A stretch of DNA of 20,000 nucleotides. Origin: an uncultured virus (IMG/VR IMGVR_UViG_3300030109_002585) (taxonomy: Duplodnaviria > Heunggongvirae > Uroviricota > Caudoviricetes). Below the pieces are notes generated by a model, which saw only the letters and a program-made list of their open reading frames with translations, was not told the origin of the DNA and ran no database searches. Positions within the stretch are counted from its first letter, which is position 1. Each line of letters starts with the position of its first letter. Positions 2,593 to 19,633 of the stretch are shown one piece after another. A program made the translations under genes and the position numbers. The DNA lies in IMG/VR virus record IMGVR_UViG_3300030109_002585; one strand, given 5' to 3'.

Positions 2593-2598
2593 GTCAAT

Positions 2599-3451: not shown

Positions 3452-3483
3452 TAACTCCTTTGAATAATAGCAATATTACTCTC

Positions 3484-3705: not shown

Positions 3706-3730
3706 ACAACCATATGGCTTTGTCCAAATT
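3706..3730. repeat. Degenerate element E7 (ACCATATGG-CTTTG)
   Basis: 9/10 match to the palindrome at 3709-3718, followed directly by CTTTG. Confidence 0.45.
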
Positions 3731-3794
3731 TTTAATATTGCTATATCAGTCTTATAATGCCAACATTACATCATTAATTCATTAATATGAGCAT

Positions 3795-4112: not shown

Positions 4113-4246
4113 CATTAAATCATTAAGATTTTATTCTGGGAATACATAAGTTAATTAAAAAAGGCTGACGCTAGTGCCAAAAAAATTCCGCCACAATTTT
4201 TCAAAAACAAATTCTATTTTAAGCAATTAACAGGAAAAGGGTTATT

Positions 4247-4516
4247 ATGACATGGAAAGATGAGATTAGAAAAGACGATGAAGAAGATAGAAAGTATAAG
4301 ATAATTGCACCTCTATTAGAAAAGTTAGAACAATATATAGAAGATAATAACTTAGACCAAGTATCGTCTATTAAGAAAGCCTTTGACGAGTTAGAATTTG
4401 AATTAATGTCTGATATTGGATATACCGGCAAATATGAAAATGAAGGCGATACTCCTATGGAAGACGCTATGTATCGTGAAAGAGAAGCACAAGGCGATAG
4501 ATATTCAATGATGTGA
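4247..4516 (+). CDS. W-tag small acidic protein (MTWKDEIRK)
   Basis: ORF track. First gene of the + strand operon. Confidence 0.8.
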   Translation: MTWKDEIRKDDEEDRKYKIIAPLLEKLEQYIEDNNLDQVSSIKKAFDELEFELMSDIGYTGKYENEGDTPMEDAMYREREAQGDRYSMM

Positions 4517-4521
4517 TTGAT

Positions 4522-4779
4522 ATGACATGGAAAGATAAAATACAGAAAAAAATGCCTAAAGGAGAATTATTGGGCGGTATGGGTATGAGAATTACTGTTG
4601 ATTCTCTTACCGCAAAAGAACGACTTTACAAAAGAATAAAAAGTGACGAAGCACAAACTTTGGCTGATTTTTTACAAGAGGCTAGAATTACCGCATTAGA
4701 ACTAATGAGTAAAATTAATGATGCAAATAAATATTATGAAGAAAATAAAGATGCGCTTGATAGAAAAAAAGGCGATTGA
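4522..4779 (+). CDS. W-tag small protein (MTWKDKIQK)
   Basis: ORF 4513..4779, start moved to ATG 4522 after GTGA. Confidence 0.8.
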   Translation: MTWKDKIQKKMPKGELLGGMGMRITVDSLTAKERLYKRIKSDEAQTLADFLQEARITALELMSKINDANKYYEENKDALDRKKGD

Positions 4780-4780
4780 T

Positions 4781-4948
4781 ATGACACGCTGTAATTACTT
4801 AGAAGACTGGTTCGATAATGAATCTGCTAAATTGGACAAAGTTGAAAATGACTATGGTAAGTGTTTAGTTACAGGTCAAAAGAAAAAGGCTACTACTTTA
4901 ACTAAGGCTCAAGCATGGGCTAAAGTGTTTAGGAGGAATAAAGAATGA
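4781..4948 (+). CDS. Small hypothetical protein (55 aa, MTRCNYLEDWFD...)
   Basis: ORF 4718..4948, start moved to ATG 4781 just after the upstream stop. ATGA overlap with the next gene. Confidence 0.7.
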   Translation: MTRCNYLEDWFDNESAKLDKVENDYGKCLVTGQKKKATTLTKAQAWAKVFRRNKE

Positions 4949-5226
4949 GTTGGGAAGATATAGTGAAAGTATCAATTACAGAGGGTCTATTCAATCAGAC
5001 AAAAGAAAAGATGAAAGACATAAAAGCAAAGTTAAGTAGTTTAGAGAAGAATAGTTATACGAAAACATCTTTAGAAAATATAGTTGATATTTATGAACAA
5101 GCAAAGAAGGCTCATAGGGAAAATAATAAAAAACTACTTGGATTTCATCTTAGAACAATGACAATAATAGGAAAAGAAATATCAGACTACTTTGATGCAC
5201 AGGATATAGGAGTTGTCAAGGAATGA
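4945..5226 (+). CDS. W-tag small protein (MSWEDIVK)
   Basis: ORF with AGGAGG RBS and ATGA overlaps. Confidence 0.85.
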   Translation: MSWEDIVKVSITEGLFNQTKEKMKDIKAKLSSLEKNSYTKTSLENIVDIYEQAKKAHRENNKKLLGFHLRTMTIIGKEISDYFDAQDIGVVKE

Positions 5227-5936
5227 ATTGGAAAAATATACTAAAGAGAGAGAAACCACCCCTTGTCCCTGATGAAGCGAGGTTTAATATTCCTACTGGA
5301 AATTTAAATAATCCTCCTGAAAGCAGGTATTTTGAAAATGCACAGGTGCATTGGATGGAATCTGTTAAATTTGTAGGAGAAGAGTTAGAAAAGCGATATA
5401 TACCTACTAAACAACACTTAGAAGCCATAAAAAAACCTTATAGGATAAAGTATAACGAAAGATTGCGTAGTAGCCAACCTGAAAATTTGTTTGACTTCCA
5501 TGCGACACTTTCAGATGAACAAGTGGAAAGCAGAAGGAAAGCGGCAACTGCGGCTTATAGAGTGGCCGAAGAAGCAATCAGAAAGGTTATTGACCCTTAC
5601 ATGGAGTTTTTGGGAAGTTGGGATAAAAAGAAAAACTTACAAGAAGCGAATAAAGAATGGGAATATCTAACCCATAGAGTTATGCTCACTGTTCACACCG
5701 CATTAAACAATTTATTCCCAACAGTGGAAGACGCATACAGGTCTAGAAAGTTAAATGGTTTCTTGCATTGGAAAGGTGAATACTATCAGAATCTAATGAA
5801 TAAGAAACTACCTGATACTATGGAACAAATTAAACCAGCGAAGAAACAACCATCGAAGAAAGAGCCTCCAAAGAAAAGAGACTATATGGCTGAAAGAAAG
5901 GAAAGAATAGAGCGTCTTAGGAGGGATAGGAAATGA
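5223..5936 (+). CDS. W-tag protein (MNWKNILK), 237 aa
   Basis: ORF with ATGA overlaps at both ends. Confidence 0.85.
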   Translation: MNWKNILKREKPPLVPDEARFNIPTGNLNNPPESRYFENAQVHWMESVKFVGEELEKRYIPTKQHLEAIKKPYRIKYNERLRSSQPENLFDFHATLSDEQVESRRKAATAAYRVAEEAIRKVIDPYMEFLGSWDKKKNLQEANKEWEYLTHRVMLTVHTALNNLFPTVEDAYRSRKLNGFLHWKGEYYQNLMNKKLPDTMEQIKPAKKQPSKKEPPKKRDYMAERKERIERLRRDRK

Positions 5937-6316
5937 GTTGGGAAGATATAATGAAAAAGAATCCTATGCGCTCAAGGTCGAATGCTGAAAAGAAAAAGAG
6001 GCGGGAAAACAAAAAGACTCTTGAAAGATTAAAAGGGGATTTAAGTTTTGATAAGGAATTGCTTCAGCAGTTGATAAGAAGAAGAGATGAACCTAATCGC
6101 AGAAAATCACAATATGGTGTAAAGTCAACTCATCGGTATTTAGATTCTGACGGAAGAGAGAAAGAGAGGTCTAAAACAGAAGCAGAAATGAAGAAAGAAA
6201 GGGCTGATAATATAAAAGAATACCAAGCCTTTTTAGATAAAATGAATAGTAAAATTAGACCTCTTGAAAAAGAGATTAAAGAAACCGAATCCCAAATCAA
6301 AGAATTAGAGGGATAG
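5933..6316 (+). CDS. W-tag charged coiled-coil protein (MSWEDIMKK)
   Basis: ORF, K/R/E-rich and helical-looking. Confidence 0.85.
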   Translation: MSWEDIMKKNPMRSRSNAEKKKRRENKKTLERLKGDLSFDKELLQQLIRRRDEPNRRKSQYGVKSTHRYLDSDGREKERSKTEAEMKKERADNIKEYQAFLDKMNSKIRPLEKEIKETESQIKELEG

Positions 6317-6319
6317 GAT

Positions 6320-6616
6320 ATGAGTTGGAAGGATTCACTAAAGAAGTATCGAACCAATGTAAGTGGTTCCGGTGCGGTCCCTTTACAAGATGTTCAGAAA
6401 GACCATAAAGAATTAAGTCTGAAACTTAGAGGAATTATGGGTGCAGTTGGTAGTCTTAGAAATAATATGCCACGAAGCGTTAGTAAAGTAATGGCTAAGT
6501 TAGATGAAATCAAAGAAGAAATATATAAAACAGAACAATTACTTGATTCTATGACTGAAGAATATGACAGTATAGATAGAGATAATTGGGACAAGACAAT
6601 GGAGGATTTACAATGA
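6320..6616 (+). CDS. W-tag coiled-coil protein (MSWKDSLKK)
   Basis: ORF track, operon spacing. Confidence 0.85.
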   Translation: MSWKDSLKKYRTNVSGSGAVPLQDVQKDHKELSLKLRGIMGAVGSLRNNMPRSVSKVMAKLDEIKEEIYKTEQLLDSMTEEYDSIDRDNWDKTMEDLQ

Positions 6617-6984
6617 ATTGGTTTGATGTAATCAAGATGTTAACTCCTAGAGAGTTTCTAGAAAAATTAAACTTGGATGGTGACATCAAAGGCACTACCG
6701 GTAAGAAAGGCACTAACATGTCGCTTCAGCACGATGCTGGTTTTGTTAAAGTCAATCAATCTAAAACAGGACCATACATAGTAAATGTTGATGGTGAGAG
6801 ATTTACTGATTATAGTTTAAGTAAGTTATTAACAGAAGTAATGGGCGCAGTTAAAAAGTCCCAAACTTCTTATACAGATGTCTTGCTAAGAAGAGCAGGG
6901 CAAGTCAATTCTGACACGGCCGGAATCATTAATGTGAGATATTCACCAAAAAAGGAGGATGAAGAATATGGCGAAGAGGACTAA
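6613..6984 (+). CDS. W-tag protein (MNWFDVIK)
   Basis: ORF 6586..6984, start moved to ATG 6613 (GGAGG RBS, ATGA overlap). Confidence 0.85.
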   Translation: MNWFDVIKMLTPREFLEKLNLDGDIKGTTGKKGTNMSLQHDAGFVKVNQSKTGPYIVNVDGERFTDYSLSKLLTEVMGAVKKSQTSYTDVLLRRAGQVNSDTAGIINVRYSPKKEDEEYGEED

Positions 6985-8065
6985 GAAAGCAACAACCACT
7001 GATGGTTTTGGTAATCAAGTACAATCAGAAACTTTGACCTTCAAACAAATGTACGATGATTGGGAGACAGATTGTAGGAAGTATTCTAGTGCAGACATAC
7101 AATCAGAAGGAAAAAAGGGGAAGACAACCCCGCCCAATTTATTAGAGCAAGTTAAGGAACATGTGACTCTAGCATACAGGCGACCTAATTCAAAGAATAA
7201 AGGAGGAACGGGCGCACATGTTGTTATTGATAAGATTCTAGAGTCATTAAAATCAGAGAAATTATTCCTTGCTAAAGAAGAGAAAGAACTCAAAAAATTC
7301 CAAAAAGAATTAAGAAAACTAAACAAGAAGGGTAGTAGTTTAAACCCTAGTAATATTGTTTTCAATAGGCCAGAAGACTACGATGTAGTGGATGGAAAGG
7401 TAGTTAATGAAAGTAAAGTACAGATTCCTATTTACGGGCATTATGTCGATAAATACTTTGTTGACAAATATCCAGAAAAGAAATATACTGTGAAAGAATC
7501 ATGGAGTGACACTTCAAAAAATGTTTCAAATCCTCCGCTTAAACAAGCATTATTTGGAAAGGGTGATTTAATAACAGTGGGTTTAGCCGATGTAGTGGAC
7601 AAGGCTATTGAAGAATTAGATAATAAAAAAATAAATCTCTATACTATTGGAATTAAAAGAGCATCAGCACTTGCAAGAATACCTTCTGTTCAATCTTGGG
7701 TTAGAAGAAATATAGTCAAGAAGAAATTCTATCCTGAAAATAGTGGTAAGATTAATCTAACAGAAATAGGTAATGCTTTGTTAATAGAAGAGTTTACAAT
7801 TAGAAATGAAATAGAACAGAAGATGTTGACTATTGCCGCCACTAATAAGAATATAGAATTTGCGCAAGAGATTGAAGCATTTAAGGTAGGTCAAATATCT
7901 AATGGAGTTATGGCTACTTTAATTAGAGAAGTAATTTCAAGAGGAAAGACAGAAAACATTAAGGTCAAAAATGGATATTATTTACAGTTAAGAGGATTGT
8001 CCGACCCTCCTTCTGAAACATGGAAAGAAATCAAAAAGAGTTGGATGCAACATTTATGGGCGTGA
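6968..8065 (+). CDS. Basic hypothetical protein (~365 aa) with a C-terminal W-motif (KKSWMQHL)
   Basis: ORF 6959..8065. AGGAGG spacing favours ATG 6968. Confidence 0.85.
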   Translation: MAKRTKKATTTDGFGNQVQSETLTFKQMYDDWETDCRKYSSADIQSEGKKGKTTPPNLLEQVKEHVTLAYRRPNSKNKGGTGAHVVIDKILESLKSEKLFLAKEEKELKKFQKELRKLNKKGSSLNPSNIVFNRPEDYDVVDGKVVNESKVQIPIYGHYVDKYFVDKYPEKKYTVKESWSDTSKNVSNPPLKQALFGKGDLITVGLADVVDKAIEELDNKKINLYTIGIKRASALARIPSVQSWVRRNIVKKKFYPENSGKINLTEIGNALLIEEFTIRNEIEQKMLTIAATNKNIEFAQEIEAFKVGQISNGVMATLIREVISRGKTENIKVKNGYYLQLRGLSDPPSETWKEIKKSWMQHLWA

Positions 8066-8069
8066 TTAA

Positions 8070-8330
8070 ATGGATTGGGTCGAAATCATGAAACGCAGTA
8101 ATTCTGATGAAATTGACAACATATTAGATTCTTACAGTCAATTGCAATCTATTCTGAAAGAAGTCTTTGCTGATATGATACCGCTTTCTGCTCTTTTAGA
8201 ATATGGAGATTACAGAGAAGCAAACGATACATGGAAAGAAATGCGTGGTAACATAATGGATTTAGAAGGAACGATGAATAGTATAAAAGATGTTAATGCG
8301 TTTATTACTAAATTGTTAGGTGATGCTTAA
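8070..8330 (+). CDS. W-tag small protein (MDWVEIMK)
   Basis: ORF track, GTGA RBS. Confidence 0.8.
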   Translation: MDWVEIMKRSNSDEIDNILDSYSQLQSILKEVFADMIPLSALLEYGDYREANDTWKEMRGNIMDLEGTMNSIKDVNAFITKLLGDA

Positions 8331-8986
8331 TGATAACTCGTAAAAGATGCGCTGTTTGTCAACATGAAGATAGAGAAGAATTAGAGGCCGCTTTAGAAGG
8401 CGCATTCATTTCCTGTGATGATTTAGATAATAGAGAAGGTTGGAGAAGCGGTACTTCCGCACAACATCTTAGAAATCATATGGGAGAATATACTAACAGT
8501 AGTAATCCTAAATGTAAATTGTGTGTTGACCCAATGAGGAAGCATTACGAAGAAGCACTTTCAAATGGTGACATATCAAGTGATGGTGTTTCACAGGCTC
8601 TCGGTATCACGAAAGAGCAAGTCCAAAGACACATGAAGCACCACTTAGCACCGTTGGTTCAGCAATCTGCCGCCAGCATTATAGCGAAAAAGGAAGTAAA
8701 TGAAATCGAATTACTAAGTGCTAACATACAAAGGTTAGATGATAAGTTAGATGAGTTATTCAGGAATACAGAATTAGAACCTAGAGAGATAGACAGCCTA
8801 ACTAAACTTGCTAAAGAAGTTAGAGAGAGTCTAAAGTATCTTATGGAGTTTAAGGGAAAACTTATTCACAAGCGACAAGATACAATTATTGTCGCACAAA
8901 TGCAGGTTGTTCAAGAAGTCCTTGCACAAAACAATCCTGAGATTTGGCTTGATATTAAGAAAAGAATGCAGGAGAAATTACAATGA
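8330..8986 (+). CDS. Tandem CxxC...HxxxH zinc/HTH protein with C-terminal coiled coil; candidate terminase small subunit
   Basis: CAVC...HLRNH and CKLC...HMKHH, with HTH-like VSQALGITKEQVQRH, followed by a helical region. Upstream of TerL in the same operon. The CDS is clear; the TerS function is inferred. Confidence 0.6.
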   Translation: MITRKRCAVCQHEDREELEAALEGAFISCDDLDNREGWRSGTSAQHLRNHMGEYTNSSNPKCKLCVDPMRKHYEEALSNGDISSDGVSQALGITKEQVQRHMKHHLAPLVQQSAASIIAKKEVNEIELLSANIQRLDDKLDELFRNTELEPREIDSLTKLAKEVRESLKYLMEFKGKLIHKRQDTIIVAQMQVVQEVLAQNNPEIWLDIKKRMQEKLQ

Positions 8987-9177
8987 ATTGGGAAGATACA
9001 ATAAAAAAATTAGATTATCCTGATAAACTAAAAGAATTAGATAAGGATATTCAAATGTATATTAGAATAATAAACTCTTACAAAAAACAGATAGAAGAAG
9101 CATTAGATAAAGATGAACTTGATAAAATATTAAAATCATTAATTGGTATGCTAAAGAGACAGGAGGAATCACAATGA
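8983..9177 (+). CDS. W-tag small protein (MNWEDTIKK)
   Basis: ORF with ATGA overlaps. Confidence 0.8.
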   Translation: MNWEDTIKKLDYPDKLKELDKDIQMYIRIINSYKKQIEEALDKDELDKILKSLIGMLKRQEESQ

Positions 9178-9641
9178 GTTGGAAAGATGTATTAAAATAT
9201 TTACCGAGTGGCAAACACCATGCCTATTTACCGCATGATGTATCAAATTCTTATGATGAAATATATGCTTATTTTGAAGACCCATTATTGAGTCATAGCA
9301 GGGATTGGGAAGATGCTTTGAATGAACTTTCTTTTAGTCAGCAAAAGTTAGCGAGTGATGTTAGAAGGGCTTTCCGAGATACTATTGTTCACAGTCTAAA
9401 ATACAAAGACGAATATGCTAGTAGGAAATATGATGCGAATAAAATTAAACAAGACTTAGATGAAATAAAAGAGTTAAAGACTAAAGTTGATGAATTAGGT
9501 TGGGGCGATAAGAGTATTAATTTTAATTTTCATTTTAATGTTCTCAAAGAGTTTTTGTTAGAAAAGTTACCTACTATCATGCAAAGAGATAAACAACCCG
9601 ACCCTACTCATTCGGAATTTAGAAGGCTTAAAAAGATTTAA
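9174..9641 (+). CDS. W-tag protein (MSWKDVLK)
   Basis: ORF with AGGAGG RBS. Confidence 0.85.
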   Translation: MSWKDVLKYLPSGKHHAYLPHDVSNSYDEIYAYFEDPLLSHSRDWEDALNELSFSQQKLASDVRRAFRDTIVHSLKYKDEYASRKYDANKIKQDLDEIKELKTKVDELGWGDKSINFNFHFNVLKEFLLEKLPTIMQRDKQPDPTHSEFRRLKKI

Positions 9642-9658
9642 CACAGGAGGCAACAAGT

Positions 9659-11680
9659 ATGAAGTGGCCTAGTGATTATCTTGGATTATTTATTATTCTA
9701 TCTGATGATAAAAGCACTAAGCAAATGCTTAGAATCAAAAGAGATGAAGATGCAAGAACTAGCACCGAAAGAAAATTTGTTGAAACTTTTGTAAGAGAAA
9801 TGAGTCCATATGTAGGAGAAACTGATTTTGATACAGATGCTTTTGATATAGATGACTACTTAGAAGAAAAGAATATTCTTGATAATCTTTTTACTATAAG
9901 AAATGCTAACACTACTGTTGCTCAAAGCGATGTAATTAACACAATAGAAGATAATATAGTAAAATTAGTTCAAAATATTGAAAATAGGTTAGGAAGAAGT
10001 AAATTCGATAAGGTAGTATCACAGACAAGAGAGGGAAAAGAAGAAATAAAGCCTCTTCTTATTGATATTCAAACTCAATTAGGGAAGTCAACAAAGGACC
10101 AAAGAGAAAAATTCCGAAATAGGTTTCTAAAAGGTAAAAAATCCTTAGATTTAATCAAATTGGCTGAAGAAAATCAAGATAGGATTACAGTAAGTAACTT
10201 TTCTAACCCAGAAAAAGTAAATATTAACAAATCTTTGCTTAAAATTACCATTAAAGGTAGTGCTTTAGAGAATAATGAAGCCACAGACTTAAAAAACGCC
10301 GCTAAAAATAAAAACTTTGTTGTAAATATGTCAGGAAAAGAATTAATTTTGAAAAAAATATTTAATTTTGCAGAAATTAACAATAAAATGAAGATTAAAA
10401 ACATTATGAACGAAATCTCTCCATTAATATTAGAAAAAGATAAACAATTAGAAGGAAAAGCGATAACTGTTGTAGTTGACCACTCACATTTAAGAAATTT
10501 TCTAATTGAAGAAGATAAAACTCTGAGAGATTTTGATTCAAGCGCACAAATTGAAGTTAAAACTGAATTTGACTTAGTAGCGGAAGAAGATATTAACGAA
10601 GCAAGAATAAAAGACTACTTTGCACTCCTATTACTCTCGGAAAACCCAATAGTTACGGGATATTTGACTGATTTTAAGATTAATGATAAAGAAATCTATA
10701 ATGTTATTTTAAACGGACCCAAAAACAAGAAAACATACAAGTCTTCTTTATATTTAACTAAGGTTCTAACTAATCCTAGCACTCAAAACATATTTGAGGA
10801 TGCTATGAAAAATATAGTTAAAGAAGAGGTTCTCCCTGAAAAAATGTATAGAGAATATATGAGACAACAGGGTAATTGGAAAGTAAATTACAAGGGTAAA
10901 AGAACACCTGATAGAACACCTAACACAGAGGCAGGTAAACAATACCTACAAAATTATGATGACTTAACTGCTAAAGGTACATTAACTATTCCTTTAATGA
11001 GATTCTTAAAAGAAGAGAGAAGAGTCAATTTTCCAGAAGGCTCATATGAAATATTAAATCCTGAAGCCGTTACTTCTGCCCAAATAGTAATACTTACTAA
11101 GAGAAATAAAAGAGTGGATGCTCTGCTAGAAAAACCAAGAACACAAAAACTATACAAAAGATGGCTAAAAGATAATAATATTGCAGACAGCAGAGAAGCC
11201 AAAAAGGGGCGTTTTGCTCCTTCGGTCCCGAAGGTTGAAGGTCTAAATCTAGAAAATGAAAGTAAGTTTGTGCAGACAGTATTCTCTATTATGGATGGAG
11301 GACTACAATCTTTCTTAGGTTCTAGAACAGAATTACCGAAACTTTTTGGAGCAATTAATATCAGAAATTCTCTGAAAGTTTACTACCATACCATTAATGA
11401 TATGACTAATGTTGATGTCAAATCAGCAGTAGTGAAGGTCGATAAATTATCAAAAGATTCAAAAGCAAAAAAGCAATCGCTTCTATCAGCAGTGAAAGAC
11501 CTTAGTGACAAATTCAACGAAGGGCTGATTCAATTTAAGCAATCATTTACTGAAGAACTAAAGAAAAGACTGAAAGATATAGAAGAAAATCCCAATAATT
11601 ATCTAACACTATACAAAGAAAATAGGTTCAAAAAACAATTAATTCTATTCAATTTATTCGATAAGAGGGATGATTCATGA
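9659..11680 (+). CDS. Large hypothetical protein (673 aa)
   Basis: Long ORF with AGGAGG RBS. No catalytic motif recognised. Confidence 0.9.
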   Translation: MKWPSDYLGLFIILSDDKSTKQMLRIKRDEDARTSTERKFVETFVREMSPYVGETDFDTDAFDIDDYLEEKNILDNLFTIRNANTTVAQSDVINTIEDNIVKLVQNIENRLGRSKFDKVVSQTREGKEEIKPLLIDIQTQLGKSTKDQREKFRNRFLKGKKSLDLIKLAEENQDRITVSNFSNPEKVNINKSLLKITIKGSALENNEATDLKNAAKNKNFVVNMSGKELILKKIFNFAEINNKMKIKNIMNEISPLILEKDKQLEGKAITVVVDHSHLRNFLIEEDKTLRDFDSSAQIEVKTEFDLVAEEDINEARIKDYFALLLLSENPIVTGYLTDFKINDKEIYNVILNGPKNKKTYKSSLYLTKVLTNPSTQNIFEDAMKNIVKEEVLPEKMYREYMRQQGNWKVNYKGKRTPDRTPNTEAGKQYLQNYDDLTAKGTLTIPLMRFLKEERRVNFPEGSYEILNPEAVTSAQIVILTKRNKRVDALLEKPRTQKLYKRWLKDNNIADSREAKKGRFAPSVPKVEGLNLENESKFVQTVFSIMDGGLQSFLGSRTELPKLFGAINIRNSLKVYYHTINDMTNVDVKSAVVKVDKLSKDSKAKKQSLLSAVKDLSDKFNEGLIQFKQSFTEELKKRLKDIEENPNNYLTLYKENRFKKQLILFNLFDKRDDS

Positions 11681-14226
11681 TATTAGAAGAATACACAAGT
11701 AAGCATAAGCAGGTCTTGAATGCTATCGAAAATAAATTTAATTCTTACAATGTTGGTGAAAACCAAAGTAAAAGAGAAAAGGCAATACGAGATATGGAGA
11801 AGTTCATAAGCGATTCTATTAGAAAGTTTGAAAAAGGCATTAAATCCAAGTGGAAAGAAATCAATGGTAGGGAAATGACTGAAGATGAGTACATTGATTT
11901 AGAAGATGAAATTATAGAAGAAATAGAAGAACATTTAGAAAGTTTCAAACCTACTCGACAAGAACCACAAACCCCTATGGAACAATTATCTAGAGATGTA
12001 TTAACTAAAATGAACCTATCTCACATCTTATATGATGGTAAGAATCTAAATACCGACACTCGACCTTTAACAAGCAAAAACTTTTCTGTTAATTTAATCA
12101 GTATTAAGCCAAATAAAACTATAAATGTTGATGCTTTGGAAACTGACATTAAAGCACTGAAAGGCTACGAAGCAAAAAAGGCTCAAGTACCTGCCCATAT
12201 CTTTACTAATCTAAGAAACCTAACTAAAAAATTAAGGAACCTTCAAGAAAGTAAAACTCAGAAGTTTAGAGTTAGAAAATTCGATTTACATTTAGATAAG
12301 ATATTTGGTTCCAAAACTAGAAAATACACAGACCTTGCAGATAGAGTGGTCGCATATGAGTATTGGGAAAAAATAGGCAAGCAAGAAGAAAAAATGGTTA
12401 AGAAGATAAGTGACTTAACTGACCTTCTAAAAAACGGCCAAAGTGAAGATGAGGATATATTGGAGTTTATTAAATTCGTGGAAGGTAAGCCTATCCATGA
12501 CTTGAAGTATGTTAGAAAGTTTGAAAATAAAGATATTGGATTACAAAGTCTTGATGCTAGAGCAGTAACTATTCTGAAAGATTTTGCTAATATGTGGGGT
12601 ACAGGTATTAGTTTGGATAGAGATGAGAGAGGAAAGGTTGAGGACTACAAAGATGATGAACCGGATTCCGAAGATGAAATGGATAGACTAGCAAGGGAAG
12701 CAGGTGAAGGCGGTTCATCAGGTAAAGACGATTCAGGTTCTATGATGATAGAAACTAGTGTAAAACAGAAAGAAGTTGAAAAGTTTAAGGCAGAAGTAGG
12801 TGAACCTGTATCATTTGACCCTTTAGGAATATTAGCCATTAAGGATGATTTGGGGGCTTTTGCATATAGGTATGGAGAAGTCGAACAGATGAAAGCAATA
12901 TTGGAAGAAGGTAAAGAAAAAATAGCCATCGACAAAGATGATGAAGATGCTATCTTTGACACATTTATTGATAGACTACAAGAAATAGAAGACTATACTA
13001 ATAGCCAAGAAGCCTACCTTCCAATCTTCGCCGCAAAGTTACCTTCTTTAAGAATACATTATCCTGACCTTAGAGGTGATTTTAACAGCACTGAACAGCA
13101 CATTGATAGATTCTTAGAACTGTTTGCTAAATTATTAGAAAAGGATAGAACCACTCTTCCTCAAAAAATAGTAGTTGATGCCGCAGGTGCAGGTACTACT
13201 AAACCAACAAAAGATGTAATGATGAGAGGCCGTTCAGTCAAACCGCAATTTCAATATGTTAAAAATGTAAAAGGTGGAAAAGGTTCTATTAGGGAACAAT
13301 TCTCGAAAGGGAAAGAATTAGATGATGACATAGGTGATAAGATAGATGAAATCACTAAACTTATGGCTGATGTATATTTAGAGACTCAAGACACTCCACA
13401 TCATATTGGTACTGATTTACCTTTCCAAGATAATTTTGCTATGAGAGTTATTGCTTCTCAAAAATCATTAGATTCTAAATATGCTGATTATGTCAATGCT
13501 ATGTCAAAACTAGCAGATGTCGGAGAGGCATTAATAACTGAAACAGAAGCCAAAAGAATGCTTCTATTTACTGAAATGCTAACTAAAGGAGATTCCATAG
13601 AAAACTTAGATGCTGTTAGAAGACAAGCAGAAGTATTTTCCAAAACTTTGATTAAGATTTTCAAGGACATAAGTGAAGAAGGCGACACAAAAACTCCGAA
13701 TAAAGCGTCTAGAAAACGCATTCAAAAGGAAGTGGCTTCCATAGTAGGTTCTATTCAAGCCCTATCGAATGTTGATTCTAACGAAAAAATATTTGGATTA
13801 GACCCTGTAAAAGAATATAACAAATTGCAGGTGGATAGAGTTTCAAGAATAGGGGCTATCAGAACATTGACTAATTTATTAAAGAGTAGTAATGCTGAAT
13901 CTTTACTAGGAGATAGTGCTACTAGTACAAAACTAATTGATAATTTCAGCCAACTGTCTAAGAGTGAAATTAGCAATAAGATTTTATTAGTACATGATAC
14001 TATTAGATTATTAAAGAACCAACCGGTATATCATTCTTTAAAGAATATTGATAGTATAGAACACATGGATATGATGATTACTAAGATGGAGAGGGAATAT
14101 AACTTAGATATAAGCGCAAGTGAAATAACAGGCGTTGTCAATGAAGTTGATTCTTTCGATAGTATCAGTAAAAGTTACGGTATTAGCCAAGAACATGTTT
14201 ATGTTATTAAAGCAAACTTTAGGTGA
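11677..14226 (+). CDS. Large hypothetical protein (849 aa) with an HTH-like C-terminus
   Basis: Long ORF with an acidic/Gly-Ser linker. Ends SFDSISKSYGISQEHVYVIKANFR. Confidence 0.9.
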   Translation: MILEEYTSKHKQVLNAIENKFNSYNVGENQSKREKAIRDMEKFISDSIRKFEKGIKSKWKEINGREMTEDEYIDLEDEIIEEIEEHLESFKPTRQEPQTPMEQLSRDVLTKMNLSHILYDGKNLNTDTRPLTSKNFSVNLISIKPNKTINVDALETDIKALKGYEAKKAQVPAHIFTNLRNLTKKLRNLQESKTQKFRVRKFDLHLDKIFGSKTRKYTDLADRVVAYEYWEKIGKQEEKMVKKISDLTDLLKNGQSEDEDILEFIKFVEGKPIHDLKYVRKFENKDIGLQSLDARAVTILKDFANMWGTGISLDRDERGKVEDYKDDEPDSEDEMDRLAREAGEGGSSGKDDSGSMMIETSVKQKEVEKFKAEVGEPVSFDPLGILAIKDDLGAFAYRYGEVEQMKAILEEGKEKIAIDKDDEDAIFDTFIDRLQEIEDYTNSQEAYLPIFAAKLPSLRIHYPDLRGDFNSTEQHIDRFLELFAKLLEKDRTTLPQKIVVDAAGAGTTKPTKDVMMRGRSVKPQFQYVKNVKGGKGSIREQFSKGKELDDDIGDKIDEITKLMADVYLETQDTPHHIGTDLPFQDNFAMRVIASQKSLDSKYADYVNAMSKLADVGEALITETEAKRMLLFTEMLTKGDSIENLDAVRRQAEVFSKTLIKIFKDISEEGDTKTPNKASRKRIQKEVASIVGSIQALSNVDSNEKIFGLDPVKEYNKLQVDRVSRIGAIRTLTNLLKSSNAESLLGDSATSTKLIDNFSQLSKSEISNKILLVHDTIRLLKNQPVYHSLKNIDSIEHMDMMITKMEREYNLDISASEITGVVNEVDSFDSISKSYGISQEHVYVIKANFR

Positions 14227-14753
14227 TTTATTTGACTAAACGCTTTGAATACACTATTAGCGATAGAAGTTTTAGTGAAAGCGAGACAAAGAAAATATTT
14301 GCTGATGCCGGAATTGATTGGCCTACAAGAGCAGAAAGATATGAACAACTAAAAGGAACTATATTTCAAGAAGTGGATGGTGAATGGTGGATTTCATATT
14401 TAGATGGAAAACCTGTTGGTTCATATGGAATTGCTAAGTTTGAAGGAGTTTATTTATCTTTAGGTGCAAGAAGTTATTCTGCTGGTGCAGGTGAATTTGC
14501 ATCAAGATATGTTGTGAATAAACATGGTGATAAACCAATTTTAGCGAATGGTGCAACTCAAGATGGAGTAAAACTATTGAATAAATTAAAATTTAAACCA
14601 ATAGAAGTGAAGAATGGATTAGTTCAAGGCAATACAGATATACCAACAGAAGTTAAATCAGCATTAGAAGTTGCTAAAGAAAGAGGCGGAACAATAGTCA
14701 GAAAAATATATTTGAAAAATTCAGACACATGGTTTGTTTTATTGAGGAATTGA
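14223..14753 (+). CDS. GNAT-like acetyltransferase fold protein (start may be TTG 14232)
   Basis: WWISYLDGKPVG beta-hairpin, RSYSAGAG resembling GNAT motif A, ATQDGVKLLNKLKF resembling motif B. Confidence 0.55.
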   Translation: MIYLTKRFEYTISDRSFSESETKKIFADAGIDWPTRAERYEQLKGTIFQEVDGEWWISYLDGKPVGSYGIAKFEGVYLSLGARSYSAGAGEFASRYVVNKHGDKPILANGATQDGVKLLNKLKFKPIEVKNGLVQGNTDIPTEVKSALEVAKERGGTIVRKIYLKNSDTWFVLLRN

Positions 14754-14754
14754 T

Positions 14755-16185
14755 ATGGAATTAGAACCGTTTAATTTTGAACATCAGATGGATATGGAGT
14801 TATCCAAAAACTCCTTTCCATATTTTTTTCAGAATGTATTAGGGTTTGATTTTCCATCGTATATTCAGGAATGGCATGACTTGATGAATGACACTCAAAG
14901 GACTGTTATTGTTTGTAGTCGTGACCACGGTAAATCTGTATTTATGCACTCATGGGTTGTATGGAAATTAATTTTTGAAGAACCCCCATACCAAATGCTA
15001 TACATATCTTCTAACCAAAAACAGACTCTTGTTCACATGAGAGACATTGATAAGATGTTTACTCATCCTATGTTAAAGAAGTTTAAACCTGCTAGGGGTT
15101 GGGCTATCGGTAACATTACATTAACTAATGGTAATCAAATCTTAGAGCGTTCCGTGGGTTCACAGATTCGTGGATTACACCCTCAAGAAATAGTAATTGA
15201 TGACCCTTTGAAGGAGTTTAGTATGACAGGTATTCAAAAGGTTACAGATTGGTTTTATGGTGACATGATACCTACTCTGCATCATACTGCATCATTGAGA
15301 GTCATTGGTACTCCGTTTAGTTATACTGATATTTACCAACAGTTAGAAGAAAATGATGCTTATACTGTTAGAACATATCCTTGTCTGAATGCTCTCAATG
15401 AACCCCTATGGCCTGAGAGATGGAATTATGAAGCACTGATGGCTAGAAAAGCAGAAGTAGGTTCATTGATGTTTACAAGAGAATACATGTGTGTGCCTAT
15501 ATCCACAGGTACTTCGCTATTCAATCCTGATTATTTAGAGAAAGCAAAGCATAAGGAATATGTCTTGAAGCCTCATAGAAGAGAGGGCTTCAAGTATTAT
15601 GTTGGGGTTGACCCTGCTATATCCACGGATGGAGACTACAATGTTATCACTGTATTAGAAGTTGATGAACATGACAATAAGACTGTGATATATGTTGACC
15701 GTTCTAAGAATGTCGAGTTTAGAGAGAACATAGAAAAGGTTCGACTAATAGGAAAAATGTTCCATCCTGAAGTAGTGTTGTTTGAGACAAATACATTCGC
15801 TAAGTCTTTCACACAAGAGTTAAGAAATGTGTCAGATTTAAATGTTCATGACTTCAATACTACTAGAAAAAGAAAGGAAGAAATTATTCTTAGTTTACAA
15901 ATGAATTTTGAGAATGAAAAGATTAGACTACCTTATGGTAATGAAGAAAGTCGCAGAGTATCTATGACATTATTAGAAGAATTATCCATGTTTGCTATTA
16001 CAGAAAAGGGCAAGTTTGAAGGGATAGGCGCACACGACGATATGGTAATGAGTCTAGCATTGGCTAATGCGGCTACCCATACTATGAGTGAAACATTCAT
16101 ACTGTTAGACGACATGGGCTTATTTGAGCCGGTTAAGACTAACAAGTATTCTAAACCTAGCGGCTACTTAGGAATAAACTTTTAA
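14755..16185 (+). CDS. terL: Terminase large subunit
   Basis: Walker A SRDHGKS, Walker B EIVIDD, motif III VIGTP, RNase H-like nuclease YVGVDPA, and HDDMVMSLALA. Confidence 0.95.
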   Translation: MELEPFNFEHQMDMELSKNSFPYFFQNVLGFDFPSYIQEWHDLMNDTQRTVIVCSRDHGKSVFMHSWVVWKLIFEEPPYQMLYISSNQKQTLVHMRDIDKMFTHPMLKKFKPARGWAIGNITLTNGNQILERSVGSQIRGLHPQEIVIDDPLKEFSMTGIQKVTDWFYGDMIPTLHHTASLRVIGTPFSYTDIYQQLEENDAYTVRTYPCLNALNEPLWPERWNYEALMARKAEVGSLMFTREYMCVPISTGTSLFNPDYLEKAKHKEYVLKPHRREGFKYYVGVDPAISTDGDYNVITVLEVDEHDNKTVIYVDRSKNVEFRENIEKVRLIGKMFHPEVVLFETNTFAKSFTQELRNVSDLNVHDFNTTRKRKEEIILSLQMNFENEKIRLPYGNEESRRVSMTLLEELSMFAITEKGKFEGIGAHDDMVMSLALANAATHTMSETFILLDDMGLFEPVKTNKYSKPSGYLGINF

Positions 16186-16195
16186 GGTGATTATT

Positions 16196-17554
16196 ATGGT
16201 AAATCCTACTACTGAAGAATTGGAAGAAGCCGAAGAAATCATGGGTAATATAGTTCAAATATCACAGGAAGAGGATGCAGAAACGAATAAGTTAGAAGAG
16301 TTAGGTATTAAGTTAAAGGGAATAAATGACTATGTTATGTCTGATTATGAAGCAATAACTAACTTATCCAAGAATCTAAACATTAATGCGAGTGATGCTA
16401 GAAAGCAATTAAATACATTCCCTTCAGAATATATTGTTGATGGTCAGAATATTCCAGACTTAGTGAGAAAGATGCGTAAAGCAAGAAGAAAACTAAAAGG
16501 CGATTCTAGAATGAGAATGGCTAAAACTATTGATACAGTTATTGAGGGATATGCAGACCATATAAACAAATGTATTGATTCTATTTATTGGATAACTCCT
16601 TACAAAATTCCACTACTTAAAATGAGATTTAATGAGAAAGATTTATCCAAATTAAATAAGATAACTGATGTTAAAAAGAGAAGAGATGTAGTTGATTCTC
16701 TTTGTAAGTTATGGGAAATTGATTTAAAAAAGACAGGAATGGTATATGGCACTGATTATGCTAAATTGGAAAAAGAATCTAGAATAGCAAAGAAAGAGTT
16801 TAGAAAAGAATTGAAAGATATTTCTGACCAATCATTAATTAAATCAAAGAAAGAAAAGTCATTAGACTTCATTTTAAAGGCAATATGCGAAAATCCCGGA
16901 ATTGGAATAGGAAAGATTCATGACTTAATGCCAAGTAATTTACATAAAGCAAATTCAACTAATACTATTTCTAAAATGGTTAAAAAACTAGAAGTAAGTA
17001 ATATAAATGGTTCTTATTATAAAATGCCTAATGAATTAAAAAAGAATGTTTGGGCTTATACTGCGGCATTTATTGATTCAGACGGCTATATTACTATGGA
17101 TAGAAACCATAACCCAAGAGTGGGATTGGTAGCAACAGGAGAAAGAGGGAAGGCATTCATGAATGAAATGCACAAATCTATTGGTTTCGGTAAGTTACAT
17201 CTAGACCAAAAATCCCCTCAAGATACACGGCCTGTTAATCGTCTAAACTTTTATTCACAAGCAGATGTAGTCAATCTATTGACTAAGTGCTTACCGCATT
17301 TCAGACTAAAGAAGGGTAATGCTGAATTATTATTAGAATTAATTCGTATGAAAAAGTCGTACAAGAAGGCTGATTGGTATAAGGGTCGTTGTGAAGAAAT
17401 ATTCAAGTTAATGAAGTGGGAGAATCACAAAGACCATGTAGGTTTTGATTTCCATAAAGAAGGAATATATTTAGATGATATTACTAAATTACAGGGTAAC
17501 TGTAAGATGTCTGTTATGGATGAGTTAGAAGGTATTGGAGGTATGATAGTATGA
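16196..17554 (+). CDS. Helical N-terminus + winged-HTH-like domain + single LAGLIDADG domain protein
   Basis: YTAAFIDSDGYI motif near 17057-17092 with downstream LLTKCLPHFRLKK. HTH-like ILKAICENPGIGIGKIHD...TISKMVKKL. AGGTGA RBS favours ATG 16196. Confidence 0.8.
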   Translation: MVNPTTEELEEAEEIMGNIVQISQEEDAETNKLEELGIKLKGINDYVMSDYEAITNLSKNLNINASDARKQLNTFPSEYIVDGQNIPDLVRKMRKARRKLKGDSRMRMAKTIDTVIEGYADHINKCIDSIYWITPYKIPLLKMRFNEKDLSKLNKITDVKKRRDVVDSLCKLWEIDLKKTGMVYGTDYAKLEKESRIAKKEFRKELKDISDQSLIKSKKEKSLDFILKAICENPGIGIGKIHDLMPSNLHKANSTNTISKMVKKLEVSNINGSYYKMPNELKKNVWAYTAAFIDSDGYITMDRNHNPRVGLVATGERGKAFMNEMHKSIGFGKLHLDQKSPQDTRPVNRLNFYSQADVVNLLTKCLPHFRLKKGNAELLLELIRMKKSYKKADWYKGRCEEIFKLMKWENHKDHVGFDFHKEGIYLDDITKLQGNCKMSVMDELEGIGGMIV

Positions 17555-17802
17555 GTTGGGAAGATATTATTCACAAGAAAGGAAAAGCCCGAAGAAAGGC
17601 CGGTTCTAAAAAAGCAAAGAAGAAGAAGAAGAAGTATAAAGCACCGAAGGGAGTTTATACTAAACCTAAATTAAGAGAAAGTATTCACGCCACTTTACTT
17701 GCTGAAAATACTCATGGAACCGCCGCCGATGAGTGGTCGGGGCGCAAATCTCAAGAATTGAATAGAAGATATAGAAAGAGAGGTGGGGGCTTTGTCAATT
17801 AA
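17551..17802 (+). CDS. W-tag highly basic protein (YTKPKLR...WSGRKSQ...YRKRGGGF; DUF5872-like N-half)
   Basis: ORF with GGAGGTATGA RBS. Family name recalled and unverified. Confidence 0.75.
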   Translation: MSWEDIIHKKGKARRKAGSKKAKKKKKKYKAPKGVYTKPKLRESIHATLLAENTHGTAADEWSGRKSQELNRRYRKRGGGFVN

Positions 17803-18058
17803 TTGGTTTTCTATTCTTAAAAAGAAAAACCTAACTGAAAAACAAAAGGACATGGTTGAATGGAGTGAAGAAGATTGGCAACCTTTAGGTGATGGAGAGG
17901 ATGATAGGTATGCTCCTAAAGCCGTAAAAGATTCTCTTACTTCTGAGCAAAGGGCATACGAGAATAAAAAGAAAAAAGAAGGTAAGAAGCAAGGAAAGCA
18001 ACATGTTAAGCGAGGAAAAACTGCAAAAAAAGTTTATGCTCGCATTGAAGGCAGGTAA
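17792..18058 (+). CDS. W-tag basic protein (WSEEDW...RYAPKA...GKQHV; DUF5872-like C-half)
   Basis: ORF 17783..18058. TTG 17792 after GAGGTG gives MSINWFSILKK. Confidence 0.75.
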   Translation: MSINWFSILKKKNLTEKQKDMVEWSEEDWQPLGDGEDDRYAPKAVKDSLTSEQRAYENKKKKEGKKQGKQHVKRGKTAKKVYARIEGR

Positions 18059-18062
18059 TATT

Positions 18063-18485
18063 ATGAATTGGAAAGAAACACTAAAGGCCCACTGCGGCAC
18101 AGAGAAAAAATTAGAAGACGATGACCCATTTGAAAAACTAGTCGGTAATCAAGATAGAATAGATGCCGATGGTGATGGTGAAATCACAGGAAATGATTTT
18201 AAGATTCTAGGAAGAAAGTCTAAAGTAAAGAAATCAAGAGACATGAAGCAAGTTCCTCTATCTAATGATAAGACCTATCCACAGAATATTAGAATATTTG
18301 AAGCCACTTTGAAAAAGGAAGGTGGTGCGGCTGGTATTAAGAATCTAGTTGATGCAAGCAAACTATCAGAAAAAGAAGTGAAGGCTGTTCTTGATATAAT
18401 GAAGAACATAAGGATTCACAAGTATGGAGACATTATTCTAATGGATGGATTACCTAAAGGAAAAGGGAGAGGGTTCACTGCATGA
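18063..18485 (+). CDS. W-tag protein with an EF-hand-like loop and a wHTH-like C-terminal domain
   Basis: Start moved to MNWKETLK. DADGDGEITGND fits the 12-residue EF-hand loop. Confidence 0.75.
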   Translation: MNWKETLKAHCGTEKKLEDDDPFEKLVGNQDRIDADGDGEITGNDFKILGRKSKVKKSRDMKQVPLSNDKTYPQNIRIFEATLKKEGGAAGIKNLVDASKLSEKEVKAVLDIMKNIRIHKYGDIILMDGLPKGKGRGFTA

Positions 18486-18889
18486 GTTGGCATATTATTC
18501 TAAAGAAACTTGTGTGTCCTACGGCAACACAAGACCTGAAACTCAACACTAAAAATAGAGATAGGGCAGTAAAAGAAAAACATATTCAATATGGCCCTCT
18601 CAATCTAAACGATGAAAAGTATTGGGAAGAATATGCTAAGAAGTGGAATACTACTGCTGATGTGGCTAAGAAATCTAATTGTAGTAATTGTGTTGCATTT
18701 GACATATCTCCAAGAATGGATGACTGTATGCCACTAAATACAGACGAAGATGGCCGACTAGGTTATTGTTGGATGCACGATTTCAAATGTCATTCTGCAA
18801 GAACCTGTTATACTTGGGCTAAAGGTGGACCTATTGATGACGATAAGACTTCTAAAGAAAACCAAATGAGAGGTGAAAAAGATGCCTAA
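18482..18889 (+). CDS. W-tag Cys-rich metal-binding protein (HiPIP-like Cys spacing)
   Basis: CSNCVAF...GYCWMHDFKCHSARTCYTW. Confidence 0.75.
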   Translation: MSWHIILKKLVCPTATQDLKLNTKNRDRAVKEKHIQYGPLNLNDEKYWEEYAKKWNTTADVAKKSNCSNCVAFDISPRMDDCMPLNTDEDGRLGYCWMHDFKCHSARTCYTWAKGGPIDDDKTSKENQMRGEKDA

Positions 18890-19166
18890 TTGGGAAGATG
18901 TTCTAAAGAAAAAACCTTTCAAGGGTTATAATAAAAAGATTCACGCAAAGACCGGAGGATTAAGTGCTAAAGGTCGTGCTAAGTTTAAGCGTGAAACAGG
19001 TGCTAATCTTAAAGCCCCTGTTACTACTAAACCAAGTAAATTGAAGCGTGGTAGTAAAGCCGCTAAAAGACGCAAATCTTTTTGTGCGAGGTCAAGAGGA
19101 TTTAAGCGTGATGATGGGACATACAGTGAAAAAGCAAAAGCCGCAAGAAGAAGGTGGAATTGTTAA
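18882..19166 (+). CDS. W-tag basic protein (GGLSAKGR...RRKSFCAR...RRWNC; DUF6321-like)
   Basis: Start moved to MPNWEDVLKK after GAGGTGA. Motif resembles a common phage family; the name is recalled. Confidence 0.8.
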   Translation: MPNWEDVLKKKPFKGYNKKIHAKTGGLSAKGRAKFKRETGANLKAPVTTKPSKLKRGSKAAKRRKSFCARSRGFKRDDGTYSEKAKAARRRWNC

Positions 19167-19633
19167 TGTGGAGAGATTTGCTAAAGGCTGATTTTGTTGT
19201 TAAAACAAATTACCCCGAAGCGGATTTTTGGCTACAAAAAAGAGGCTCTGAACAGAATGTTGGAAAGCCTATGCGAAAGTTTAGCAAGATACAAGGTCAA
19301 TATAACATAGGAATTAAGGTTCCCGAAGGAATGAATAAGGAATATGTGTATGCACAATTGGCGAGATTGTTTAGAAAAGGATATTGGCAAATACATTCTT
19401 ATGGTTCCCTTAATTTACAACATATTAGAGTTGATGATGTTAAGAAGATTTTAGAATCGTTTGAAGATAAAGCAGACTACAAAGATGTTACATCAGATAA
19501 AATAGAAAAGATATATGATAATTGGTTAAAAAGGTCTAGAGAAATCAGTAAGATATTAATGTCAAGTAACTCTCTAATTAGAGAAGGTCGAGAAATTAAA
19601 AGGTTCTTACAGAAAATGGAGGACATGAGATGA
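19166..19633 (+). CDS. W-tag protein resembling a stand-alone type I RM HsdS target-recognition-domain fragment
   Basis: TAATG overlap gives MWRDLLK. KEYVYAQL...SYGSLNLQHIRVDDVKKI resembles the TRD C-terminal pattern. Confidence 0.6.
   Translation: MWRDLLKADFVVKTNYPEADFWLQKRGSEQNVGKPMRKFSKIQGQYNIGIKVPEGMNKEYVYAQLARLFRKGYWQIHSYGSLNLQHIRVDDVKKILESFEDKADYKDVTSDKIEKIYDNWLKRSREISKILMSSNSLIREGREIKRFLQKMEDMR

Follow-up and report, generated by a model that had tools for sequence, protein, structure and literature searches.

A short terminal peptide on unrelated proteins of a magrovirus-like virus: a candidate signal for loading cargo into the capsid

A tagged gene array in the window

The DNA analyzed here is a stretch of 20,000 nucleotides (nt), which we call the window, from an uncultured tailed virus (Caudoviricetes; IMG/VR record IMGVR_UViG_3300030109_002585). 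It is AT-rich (G+C 30–43%), and from about 3.8 kb to its end it is occupied by a single, tightly packed array of genes on the + strand. Sixteen of these genes encode otherwise unrelated proteins that begin with a common short peptide, in which a tryptophan is followed at a fixed distance by hydrophobic residues and a lysine. We refer to this peptide as the tag. An earlier examination of the letters alone, here the sequence-only reading, had proposed that the tag loads its bearers into the capsid as cargo. We find that the tag recurs in related viruses on hundreds of different proteins, is maintained as a peptide, and bears a modest resemblance to the C-terminal tails of two head-assembly proteins. 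The genes of the window, with protein lengths in amino acids (aa), are as follows.

4247–4516, + strand: tagged gene, 89 aa, MTWKDEIRK, loose form of the tag
4522–4779, + strand: tagged gene, 85 aa, MTWKDKIQK, loose form of the tag
4945–5226, + strand: tagged gene, 93 aa, MSWEDIVK; ATGA stop-start overlap with the gene upstream
5223–5936, + strand: tagged gene, 237 aa, MNWKNILK; without Pfam or PHROG family
5933–6316, + strand: tagged gene, 127 aa, MSWEDIMKK; basic, coiled-coil-like
6320–6616, + strand: tagged gene, 98 aa, MSWKDSLKK
6613–6984, + strand: tagged gene, 123 aa, MNWFDVIK; cluster 10, nine orthologues
6959–8065, + strand: untagged gene, 368 aa; family C-terminus S-W-x-x-[IVY]-L, the window copy ending ...TWKEIKKSWMQHLWA (KKSWMQHLWA)
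8070–8330, + strand: tagged gene, 86 aa, MDWVEIMK
8330–8986, + strand: untagged 218-aa protein, Cys-rich and helix-turn-helix (HTH)-like; C-terminus ...EIWLDIKKRMQEKLQ in 36 of 37 orthologues, weakly tag-like
8983–9177, + strand: tagged gene, 64 aa, MNWEDTIKK
9174–9641, + strand: tagged gene, 155 aa, MSWKDVLK
9659–11680, + strand: untagged 673-aa protein; the gene at the same position in the related genome G002 (751 aa) is tagged, MSWFEQLK
11677–14226, + strand: untagged 849-aa protein; candidate alternative receptor or core protein
14223–14753, + strand: untagged 176-aa gene immediately upstream of TerL, with C-terminal motif ...DTWFVLLRN
14755–16185, + strand: terminase large subunit (TerL), untagged; phrog_38, E 7e-58
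16187–17554, + strand: endonuclease-like protein, 455 aa, untagged; PHROG label HNH, E 1e-5
17551–17802, + strand: tagged gene, 83 aa, MSWEDIIHKK, very basic
17792–18058, + strand: tagged gene, 88 aa, (L)SINWFSILKK, TTG start
18063–18485, + strand: tagged gene, 140 aa, MNWKETLK
18482–18889, + strand: tagged gene, 135 aa, MSWHIILKK, Cys-rich body; W3, I5, I6 and K8 invariant in 31 distinct orthologues
18882–19166, + strand: tagged gene, 94 aa, MPNWEDVLKK followed by a DUF6321 body
19166–19633, + strand: tagged gene, 155 aa, MWRDLLK followed by DUF6943
19797–20000, + strand: portal gene, first part only (truncated where the window ends), untagged

All sixteen tagged starts named by the sequence-only reading (16/16) are present at these coordinates and read as it gave them. 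An independent regular expression, consisting of a start codon, 0–3 residues, W-x-x-x-[ILVMF]-[KRQH] and at least 35 aa downstream, finds these 16 starts and no others on the + strand of the window, and it has no match on the − strand. In the three + frames there are 11 instances of the strict form of the tag, W-x-x-[ILVM]-[ILVM]-K, ten of them at listed starts and one off-frame at 7596; the three − frames have none. The other six of the 16 starts deviate from the strict form (4247 WKDEIR, 4522 WKDKIQ, 6320 WKDSLK, 8983 WEDTIK, 17551 WEDIIH and 18063 WKETLK). Two starts have alternatives nearby: the TTG at 17792 has a GTG at 17783, and 19166 has possible starts at 19154 and 19160. Among the untagged small genes, an open reading frame (ORF) listed at 4718–4948 overlaps the preceding gene by 62 nt; its likelier start is an in-frame ATG at about 4781 (MTRCNYLEDW...), just past the upstream stop at 4779.

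The tag was said to be missing from several proteins of the array. Judged on the window ORFs, this is so for the N-termini of TerL, the portal and the endonuclease-like protein. For the candidate small terminase subunit (TerS) the statement is true of the N-terminus but does not extend beyond it. The 455-aa endonuclease-like protein had earlier been called a LAGLIDADG protein; its PHROG HNH match spans residues 290–403, and it has no Pfam hit.

The tag in related viruses

We retrieved 80 related loci from viral contigs with the TerL of the window, many of them from records of 94–96 kb. Among ORFs of at least 40 codons in the window and these 80 loci, 729 of 3336 are tagged on the + strand, compared with 25 of 6808 on the − strand; a stricter pattern gives 602 and 1. 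Tryptophan is enriched 38.7-fold at residue 3, where 444 of the 1317 distinct N-termini have it. The excess of tags is far above chance. A logo of 683 tags reads M (74%), S/N/T, W (100%), K/E/Q/F, D/E/N, I/V (82%), L/I (91%) and K (94%, position +5), giving the consensus M-[SNT]-W-x-[DEN]-[IV]-[LI]-K. From +6 onward the logo shows merely a Lys-rich bias, in agreement with the earlier statement that similarity stops after the lysine. With their tags stripped, the 729 tagged proteins fall into 243 BLAST clusters. A short N-terminal peptide is indeed common to unrelated proteins, to 16 of 16 in the window and to 243 body clusters when the 80 loci are included. At least two of the clusters, 19 and 213, were rejected as tagged families, because the calls fall inside the endonuclease and the 849-aa family, respectively, and are false. 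The motif was not found described in the main text of selected papers on magroviruses, nor in the titles and abstracts of papers on capsid targeting in an archaeal context.

The tag is a signal at the level of the peptide, not of the nucleotides. Leucine at +4 is encoded by all six codons (TTA.30, CTA.22, CTT.19, TTG.16, CTC.08, CTG.05), and the usage of the three isoleucine codons and both lysine codons equals that of the gene bodies. Of the 13 families that have five or more distinct members, 12 show higher conservation in the four core columns of the tag than in the body (mean 0.87 vs 0.71). The sequence-only reading had named conservation at the nucleotide level as an observation that would speak against it. 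Because codon usage in the tag is body-like and the core columns are kept, the conservation is not of that kind.

Some features of the tag codons do suggest a function for the DNA or mRNA, either as a context for translation initiation or coupling, or as short homology for the recombination of gene cassettes. Serine in the tag is encoded by AGT in 84% of cases, compared with 26% in gene bodies, and the first tag codons lean towards A or T at the third base. Many tagged genes start at ATGA overlaps, and the same tagged families lie upstream or downstream of TerL, depending on the genome. However, the frequent ATGA stop-start overlaps account for the A-starting second codon and the AGT bias, and the untagged genes of the same operon show the same overlaps. 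The six leucine, three isoleucine and two lysine codons occur at body-like frequencies, the copies of the motif at C-termini (described below) have no start context, and shuffling can be a by-product of tags that the genes have in common. We consider it very improbable that the conservation serves the DNA or mRNA. Members of clusters 2, 3, 4 and 8 lie upstream and downstream of TerL in 12/20, 10/18, 7/20 and 6/5 cases, respectively. One such shift is seen between 17551–18889 of the window and the loci L003:3244–4332 and L002:13091–15588, where the upstream position is the one before the giant proteins (the 673- and 849-aa proteins of the window). In this the tagged genes resemble movable cassettes, and the DNA of their common tag may favour this shuffling.

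Two families indicate that the tag has been joined to domains that exist elsewhere in its absence. As the sequence-only reading had anticipated for cargo domains, the DUF6321 body has pelagiphage and cyanophage homologues that start untagged. In pelagiphage Eistla the homologue is gp45, located between the scaffold and capsid genes, and in cyanophage S-TIP28 it adjoins TerL; neither carries a tag. In the family of the 17551–17802 protein (24 orthologues) the tag is fixed, while the poly-Lys/Arg linker varies in length by more than 15 residues; the pelagiphage homologues of this protein align to residues 36–81 alone.

The tagged proteins are mostly small and soluble. The median length of 241 cluster representatives is 104 aa; lengths range from fewer than 40 to 755 aa, and the isoelectric point (pI) is bimodal, the proteins being either acidic or very basic. 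A transmembrane-like segment was found in 2 of the 241 representatives, compared with 20 of 129 untagged ORFs of the related genome G001. When 150 cluster representatives were compared with Pfam, 7 had a match at E ≤ 0.001 and 143 had none; the 7 comprise DUF6943, zinc ribbons, a PAP2 phosphatase that lacks hydrophobic segments, and other, weak matches. An AlphaFold2 model of the tagged 18482–18886 protein, made with 31 orthologues, is of low confidence (mean predicted local distance difference test score, pLDDT, 44.6).

A common N-terminus could also be the best-kept remnant of one old paralogous family whose bodies have diverged. The tagged genes are clustered, co-oriented and mostly small, and the 143 representatives without a Pfam match are compatible with such divergence. 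The range of lengths and the bimodal pI argue against it, and bodies that can be classified belong to different families (DUF6321, DUF6943, PAP2, zinc ribbons). Furthermore, the bacteriophage relatives of DUF6321 are untagged, and the motif is found at C-termini too. Descent of all tagged genes from a single ancestor is hardly credible in the face of these observations.

In complete genomes the tags are confined to a block of about 17 kb that is co-oriented and contiguous with the terminase and portal genes. G001 (95,889 bp) has 18 matches to the DNA pattern on the head-gene strand, all within 19,013–36,102, and G002 (94,643 bp) has 17, confined to 418–13,862 of the head-gene strand. ORF calling in G001 yields 21 tagged genes, every one of which is located between the portal gene and a divergent intergenic region. 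Two forward-strand matches near 70.8 kb of G001 were read as spurious, and a tagged call at 80,682 is false. Along the head strand, tagged genes are followed by two giant proteins, TerL, the endonuclease, further tagged genes and the portal; after the portal come a protein of about 1100 aa, small proteins, an 841-aa protein with a ligase domain, the S78 prohead protease, the capsid protein and the tail genes. The replication module of G001 lies on the opposite strand (UvrD helicase, RNR-like protein, Cpn60, clamp-loader-like ATPase, split family B DNA polymerase or PolB, ERCC4 nuclease) and contains no tagged gene. Within the window, no intergenic gap between 4247 and 20000 exceeds 17 nt, so the tagged genes are likely co-transcribed with the terminase and portal genes.

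Three genes of this genome deserve a separate remark. The 841-aa protein (L081:8709–11234, − strand; G001) carries a PF01068 ATP-dependent DNA ligase domain (E 9e-30) and is encoded in the head module, after the portal and before the prohead protease; its homologue in G002 has 976 aa, and a partial match is found to a 1857-aa ORF in G006, a genome without tags. The family B DNA polymerase of G001 is split into L084:8275–9930 and L084:11039–11920, about 1.1 kb apart with small ORFs between them. Its Cpn60/TCP-1 chaperonin (L083:17024–18541, E 8e-48) has just upstream a small ORF with no Pfam hit.

Magroviruses, the viruses of marine group II archaea, rank among the most abundant viruses in surface ocean waters. 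To our knowledge, most of their genes have no known function. The sequence-only reading placed the window in an archaeal virus, and two observations bear this out, the host itself being predicted. Among cultured viruses, the protease of these genomes matches only tailed viruses of Haloarcula, and a 78%-identical protease carries the NCBI label Euryarchaeota. Magrovirus genomes, in the sections of the original description used here, are about 90–100 kb long and combine a halovirus-like head module (major capsid protein, portal, prohead protease, terminase) with a replication module of their own (PMC5434244). We compared the relatives of the window, rather than the window itself, with this description: they are 94–96 kb long and contain the head module, a split PolB, a clamp-loader-like ATPase, Cpn60 and an ERCC4 nuclease. 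The predicted gene content fits an archaeal, magrovirus-like virus.

Head-assembly tails and candidate partners of the tag

The closest likeness to the tag outside N-termini lies in the head module. The S78 protease of G001 (413 aa) consists of the S78 domain and an acidic, coiled-coil-like C-terminal half that ends ...ASMDWSDIHKMVNNI. An 82-aa protein encoded three genes upstream of it ends ...SSMDWSDIHKMMEKVGGQ. The protease tail, M[DE]WSDIHKM, is present in 78 of 80 protease loci (66–100% identity), and the corresponding tail of the head-module protein of about 80–100 aa, M[DE]W[SK][DE]IHKMV..., is as conserved. Judged by eye, tails of the form [ML]-[SD]-W-x-[DE]-[IV]-[HN] close 21 of 150 diverse S78 representatives, many of which are fragments or fusions. 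To measure the likeness, we built a position-specific scoring matrix (PSSM) from the tags of 192 cluster representatives and ran it along the G001 proteome, at 27,558 non-N-terminal positions. The tails of the protease and of the small protein rank first and second (9.1 bits), followed in third and fourth place by the C-terminus of a 374-aa protein, and these four best positions all lie within 16 residues of a C-terminus. Thus the tails are unusual by their position, not by their score, and the similarity between tag and tails appears modest. The text excerpts of PMC8229669 contain nothing useful on protease or scaffold tails.

The motif also closes proteins of the tagged block that have no N-terminal tag. 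On the + strand it is found 523 times at an N-terminus, 80 times within 25 residues of a C-terminus and 79 times elsewhere, some of the latter reflecting mis-called starts; the − strand total is 3, and C-terminal matches number 80 on the + strand compared with 1 on the − strand. The family of the 368/374-aa proteins in the tagged block ends ...KKSWQDILRW, ...SWHEYLWS or ...SWKMIL, and an unrelated gene directly upstream of TerL in G002 ends ...DWFNMLKRRN. A signal that works at either end of a protein and resembles the tail of an enzyme that enters the prohead is what one would expect of a docking peptide.

These same positions bear on the idea that the motif is a bare site for the prohead protease or a host protease. 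It would then time the degradation or activation of its bearers and play no part in encapsidation. In the tag a lysine is conserved at +5 (94%), and the protease and the scaffold-like protein, which are of types usually processed, carry ...DIHK-M.... The capsid protein (L086:7253–8587) has an invariant L27-K28 near its N-terminus, within ...NALLKQAG... (90 sequences, 66–100% identity); we speculate that this pair is a maturation cleavage site of the form [hydrophobic]-L-K. However, a bare protease site need not be terminal, whereas the motif is found at the two ends of proteins far more often (523 and 80) than at the 79 positions scored as internal. The loss of 8 residues from an N-terminus, or of 0–8 from a C-terminus, would also rarely alter the activity of a protein. 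We regard a bare protease site as improbable. Two sequences within head proteins were set aside: SGWRVLK inside the capsid protein (K in 36 of 46, Q in 10 of 46) lies within a conserved structural stretch and is not counted as a tag, and FDILK at the end of the protease domain is a fold element conserved in distant S78 proteases and no sign of a cleavage site.

The AlphaFold2 model of the capsid protein is of low confidence (pLDDT 57.6), with the N-terminal 95 residues unreliable. When this model was compared with the PDB by Foldseek, nothing matched at E ≤ 0.001, and the best of the weak matches are phage capsids and encapsulins.

We suggest, with about an even chance of being right, that the tag is a docking label that loads a fast-changing set of proteins into the prohead. 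This would be consistent with a peptide-level signal that is grafted onto existing domains, confined to the head block, and similar to the tails of the protease and the scaffold-like protein. The proposal of capsid cargo loading is supported in part; its simplest version is countered by tag residues that do not follow the tails and by a sister lineage that bears the tail but is untagged. The observations that weigh against the docking label can be gathered as follows. The 9.1 bits of the tails fall within the range of maxima from shuffled proteomes (median 7.2, 95th percentile 13.2), and a matrix restricted to the core from W to +6 ranks them only 11th and 12th. Position +4 is L in the tags and H or N in the tails. 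In lineages whose proteases are 56–58% identical, the tails read MDW[SN]DINAL or MSWGDIHNL, and the tags nevertheless keep I-L-K; 132 of 173 and 166 of 211 of them have K at +5. The tag therefore does not track the tail residue by residue, and covariation, in which the lysine of the tag would mirror the lysine of the IHKM tail, is ruled out. These lineages are well tagged (187 on the + strand vs 10 on the − strand, and 231 vs 50), with 7–11 pattern matches on the head-gene strand per complete genome.

A more distant sister lineage (L166–L239 and G006; protease 43% identical, G+C higher by eye) weighs in the same direction. Its protease ends in MSW[DE]EVH[QA]LA, and its protein of about 106–154 aa ends in M[ST]W[AE][DE]IHEMAEQ, yet it has no tags: 18 matches on the + strand vs 24 on the − strand in 74 loci, with no enrichment of N-terminal tryptophan, and 0, 0, 0 and 1 (spurious) pattern matches in four genomes. 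The presence of the tail alone thus does not entail tags. The 218-aa Cys-rich/HTH-like protein at 8330–8986 also occurs in a tagless sister genome. The load itself is a further difficulty for the docking label, as 16–21 cargo species per genome, of up to 755 aa, are many for a virus of about 95 kb. Finally, giant proteins specific to the tagged lineages co-occur with the tags and could be the true partner.

According to this last idea, the tag docks not to the capsid protein but to a lineage-specific hub, most plausibly formed by the giant untagged proteins (9659–11680, 11677–14226 and the protein of about 1100 aa). The hub could be an inner core in the head, in which case the tagged proteins would still be cargo, or a separate complex in the cell, in which case they would not. 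The 884-aa family, homologous to the 11677–14226 protein, is present in G001, G002 and all five further tag-bearing genomes (G007–G011), that is in seven complete tagged genomes, and in none of the four tagless genomes G003–G006, two of which are less than 90% complete. By BLASTP, tagless G006 lacks the 695-, 1109-, 374- and 257-aa proteins although it shares the capsid protein, protease, portal and TerL. The independence of the tag residues from the protease tail across lineages also favours a hub, and so does the start of the protein of about 1100 aa itself, which is tag-like. This protein, encoded after the portal (L081:12305–15634, − strand; L003:16534–19836), begins with MSWKAVLSG or MLWEAVLVG, without the lysine; a conserved SFLLK follows, and no family was found for it.

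On the other side, the co-occurrence of giant proteins and tags is weak evidence, because it may represent roughly one evolutionary event and so one observation. In 23 loci of cluster 6, as in G002 (751 aa), the position of the first giant protein holds a tagged gene, which fits cargo better than a receptor. The giant proteins have yielded no family, fold or solved relative, and sequence searches of the Atlas and the PDB returned no relatives of the 849- and 673-aa proteins. In addition, the resemblance of the tag to the tails of the protease and the scaffold-like protein suggests a partner that also serves head assembly. A giant hub is unlikely in our view, with distinctly better prospects than a bare protease site.

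A model for cargo docking and its relation to known systems

If the tag is a docking label, it would be a portable one that acts at a free protein end, usually the N-terminus and occasionally the C-terminus, and recruits many fast-changing small soluble proteins into the assembling prohead. As gene order and gaps suggest, the tagged genes would be expressed with the terminase, portal and head genes from one packed operon. Were the peptide helical, the side chains of W, I and L would share one face. This face, together with the lysine, may bind the interior site that holds the protease and scaffold-like tail MDWSDIHKM, as the likeness and the position of the tag suggest. The prohead protease might then clip the tag, possibly after the lysine; the HK97 protease cuts its capsid protein after a lysine. 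The cargo might remain inside the head until it passes into the host together with the DNA. Cleavage after the lysine and injection of the cargo, both put forward by the sequence-only reading, are guesses. It is also conceivable, though we put it somewhat short of an even chance, that an abundant group of ocean archaeal viruses turned a capsid-binding tail of its protease and scaffold into an eight-residue label that works at either end and is carried by hundreds of unrelated, rapidly exchanged genes. Each particle would then hold a customised payload, probably of host-takeover or anti-defence factors, and no virus capsid would be known to have a larger natural system for loading cargo.

Several described systems resemble parts of this model; the comparisons draw on portions of the papers cited. 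In phage T4 the internal proteins IPI–III and Alt have at their N-terminus a CTS (capsid targeting sequence) of about 10–20 aa that attaches to the core of the prohead and is cut off by the protease, and these proteins are ejected into the host (PMC7411985, PMC9958956). Both cases involve a short N-terminal peptide on differing proteins of a tailed virus with a prohead protease. However, T4 has a handful of bearers, whereas the window alone has 16 and the 80 loci give 243 clusters, and its protease is of the gp21 type whereas that of the present viruses is of the S78/HK97 type. The viruses described here also differ in having C-terminal copies, a likeness to the protease tail and a predicted archaeal host. 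In phage P1 the first 30 residues of DarB, an anti-restriction protein that is delivered to the host, suffice to load a reporter into the capsid (PMC9024508). An N-terminal signal and an HK97-like capsid protein are common to both, but the Dar proteins are described, in the text excerpts of that paper, as having no common N-terminal consensus (PMC9024508), in contrast to the one strict consensus on hundreds of families found here.

Encapsulin targeting peptides, such as GSLxIGSLK on the cargo DyP, consist of 8–10 residues with two or three hydrophobic residues and a basic end, are portable, and bind inside a shell of the HK97 fold, according to excerpts of PMC10960027. The magrovirus tag is similarly terminal, with W, I/V and L/I before a closing K. 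In contrast to the encapsulin peptide, its consensus, W-x-[DE]-I-L-K, has no Gly or Ser, and it is mostly N-terminal. The shell here also differs from an encapsulin shell, being a true virus capsid accompanied by genes for TerL, portal, protease and tail, and an encapsulin usually has one or few types of cargo.

Signals on the assembly proteins themselves provide a further comparison. The C-terminal propeptide of the SPN3US protease (gp245) is proposed, in part of PMC7411985, to target the protease into the prohead. The protease–scaffold fusion and the small head protein of the present lineage likewise share a conserved C-terminal tail. In SPN3US and phiKZ-like phages many head proteins are processed by the protease, and their propeptides are proposed to target the prohead (PMC7411985); as far as these excerpts go, the propeptides have 111–130 residues and are alike in the cleavage motif alone, whereas the present tag is a common consensus of 8 residues. 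N-terminal copies on proteins that are not part of assembly, as found in the present viruses, are not known to be described for SPN3US or HK97. A C-terminal part of HK97 gp4 is said to target the prohead, going by the title of work by Duda and colleagues from 2013. The protease tail of the cultured halovirus HVTV-1 lacks the motif.

The tag offers a simple sequence rule for spotting candidate injected proteins in metagenomes. If the docking label is real, it would also be a minimal tag of defined consensus for packaging proteins. Capsid-targeting peptides would then extend from T4, P1 and the encapsulins to archaeal viruses and to hundreds of families. For the magrovirus-like viruses themselves, about a fifth of the genes of each genome (21 tagged genes in the 95.9-kb G001) would gain a location in the particle and, likely, a role as delivered payload.

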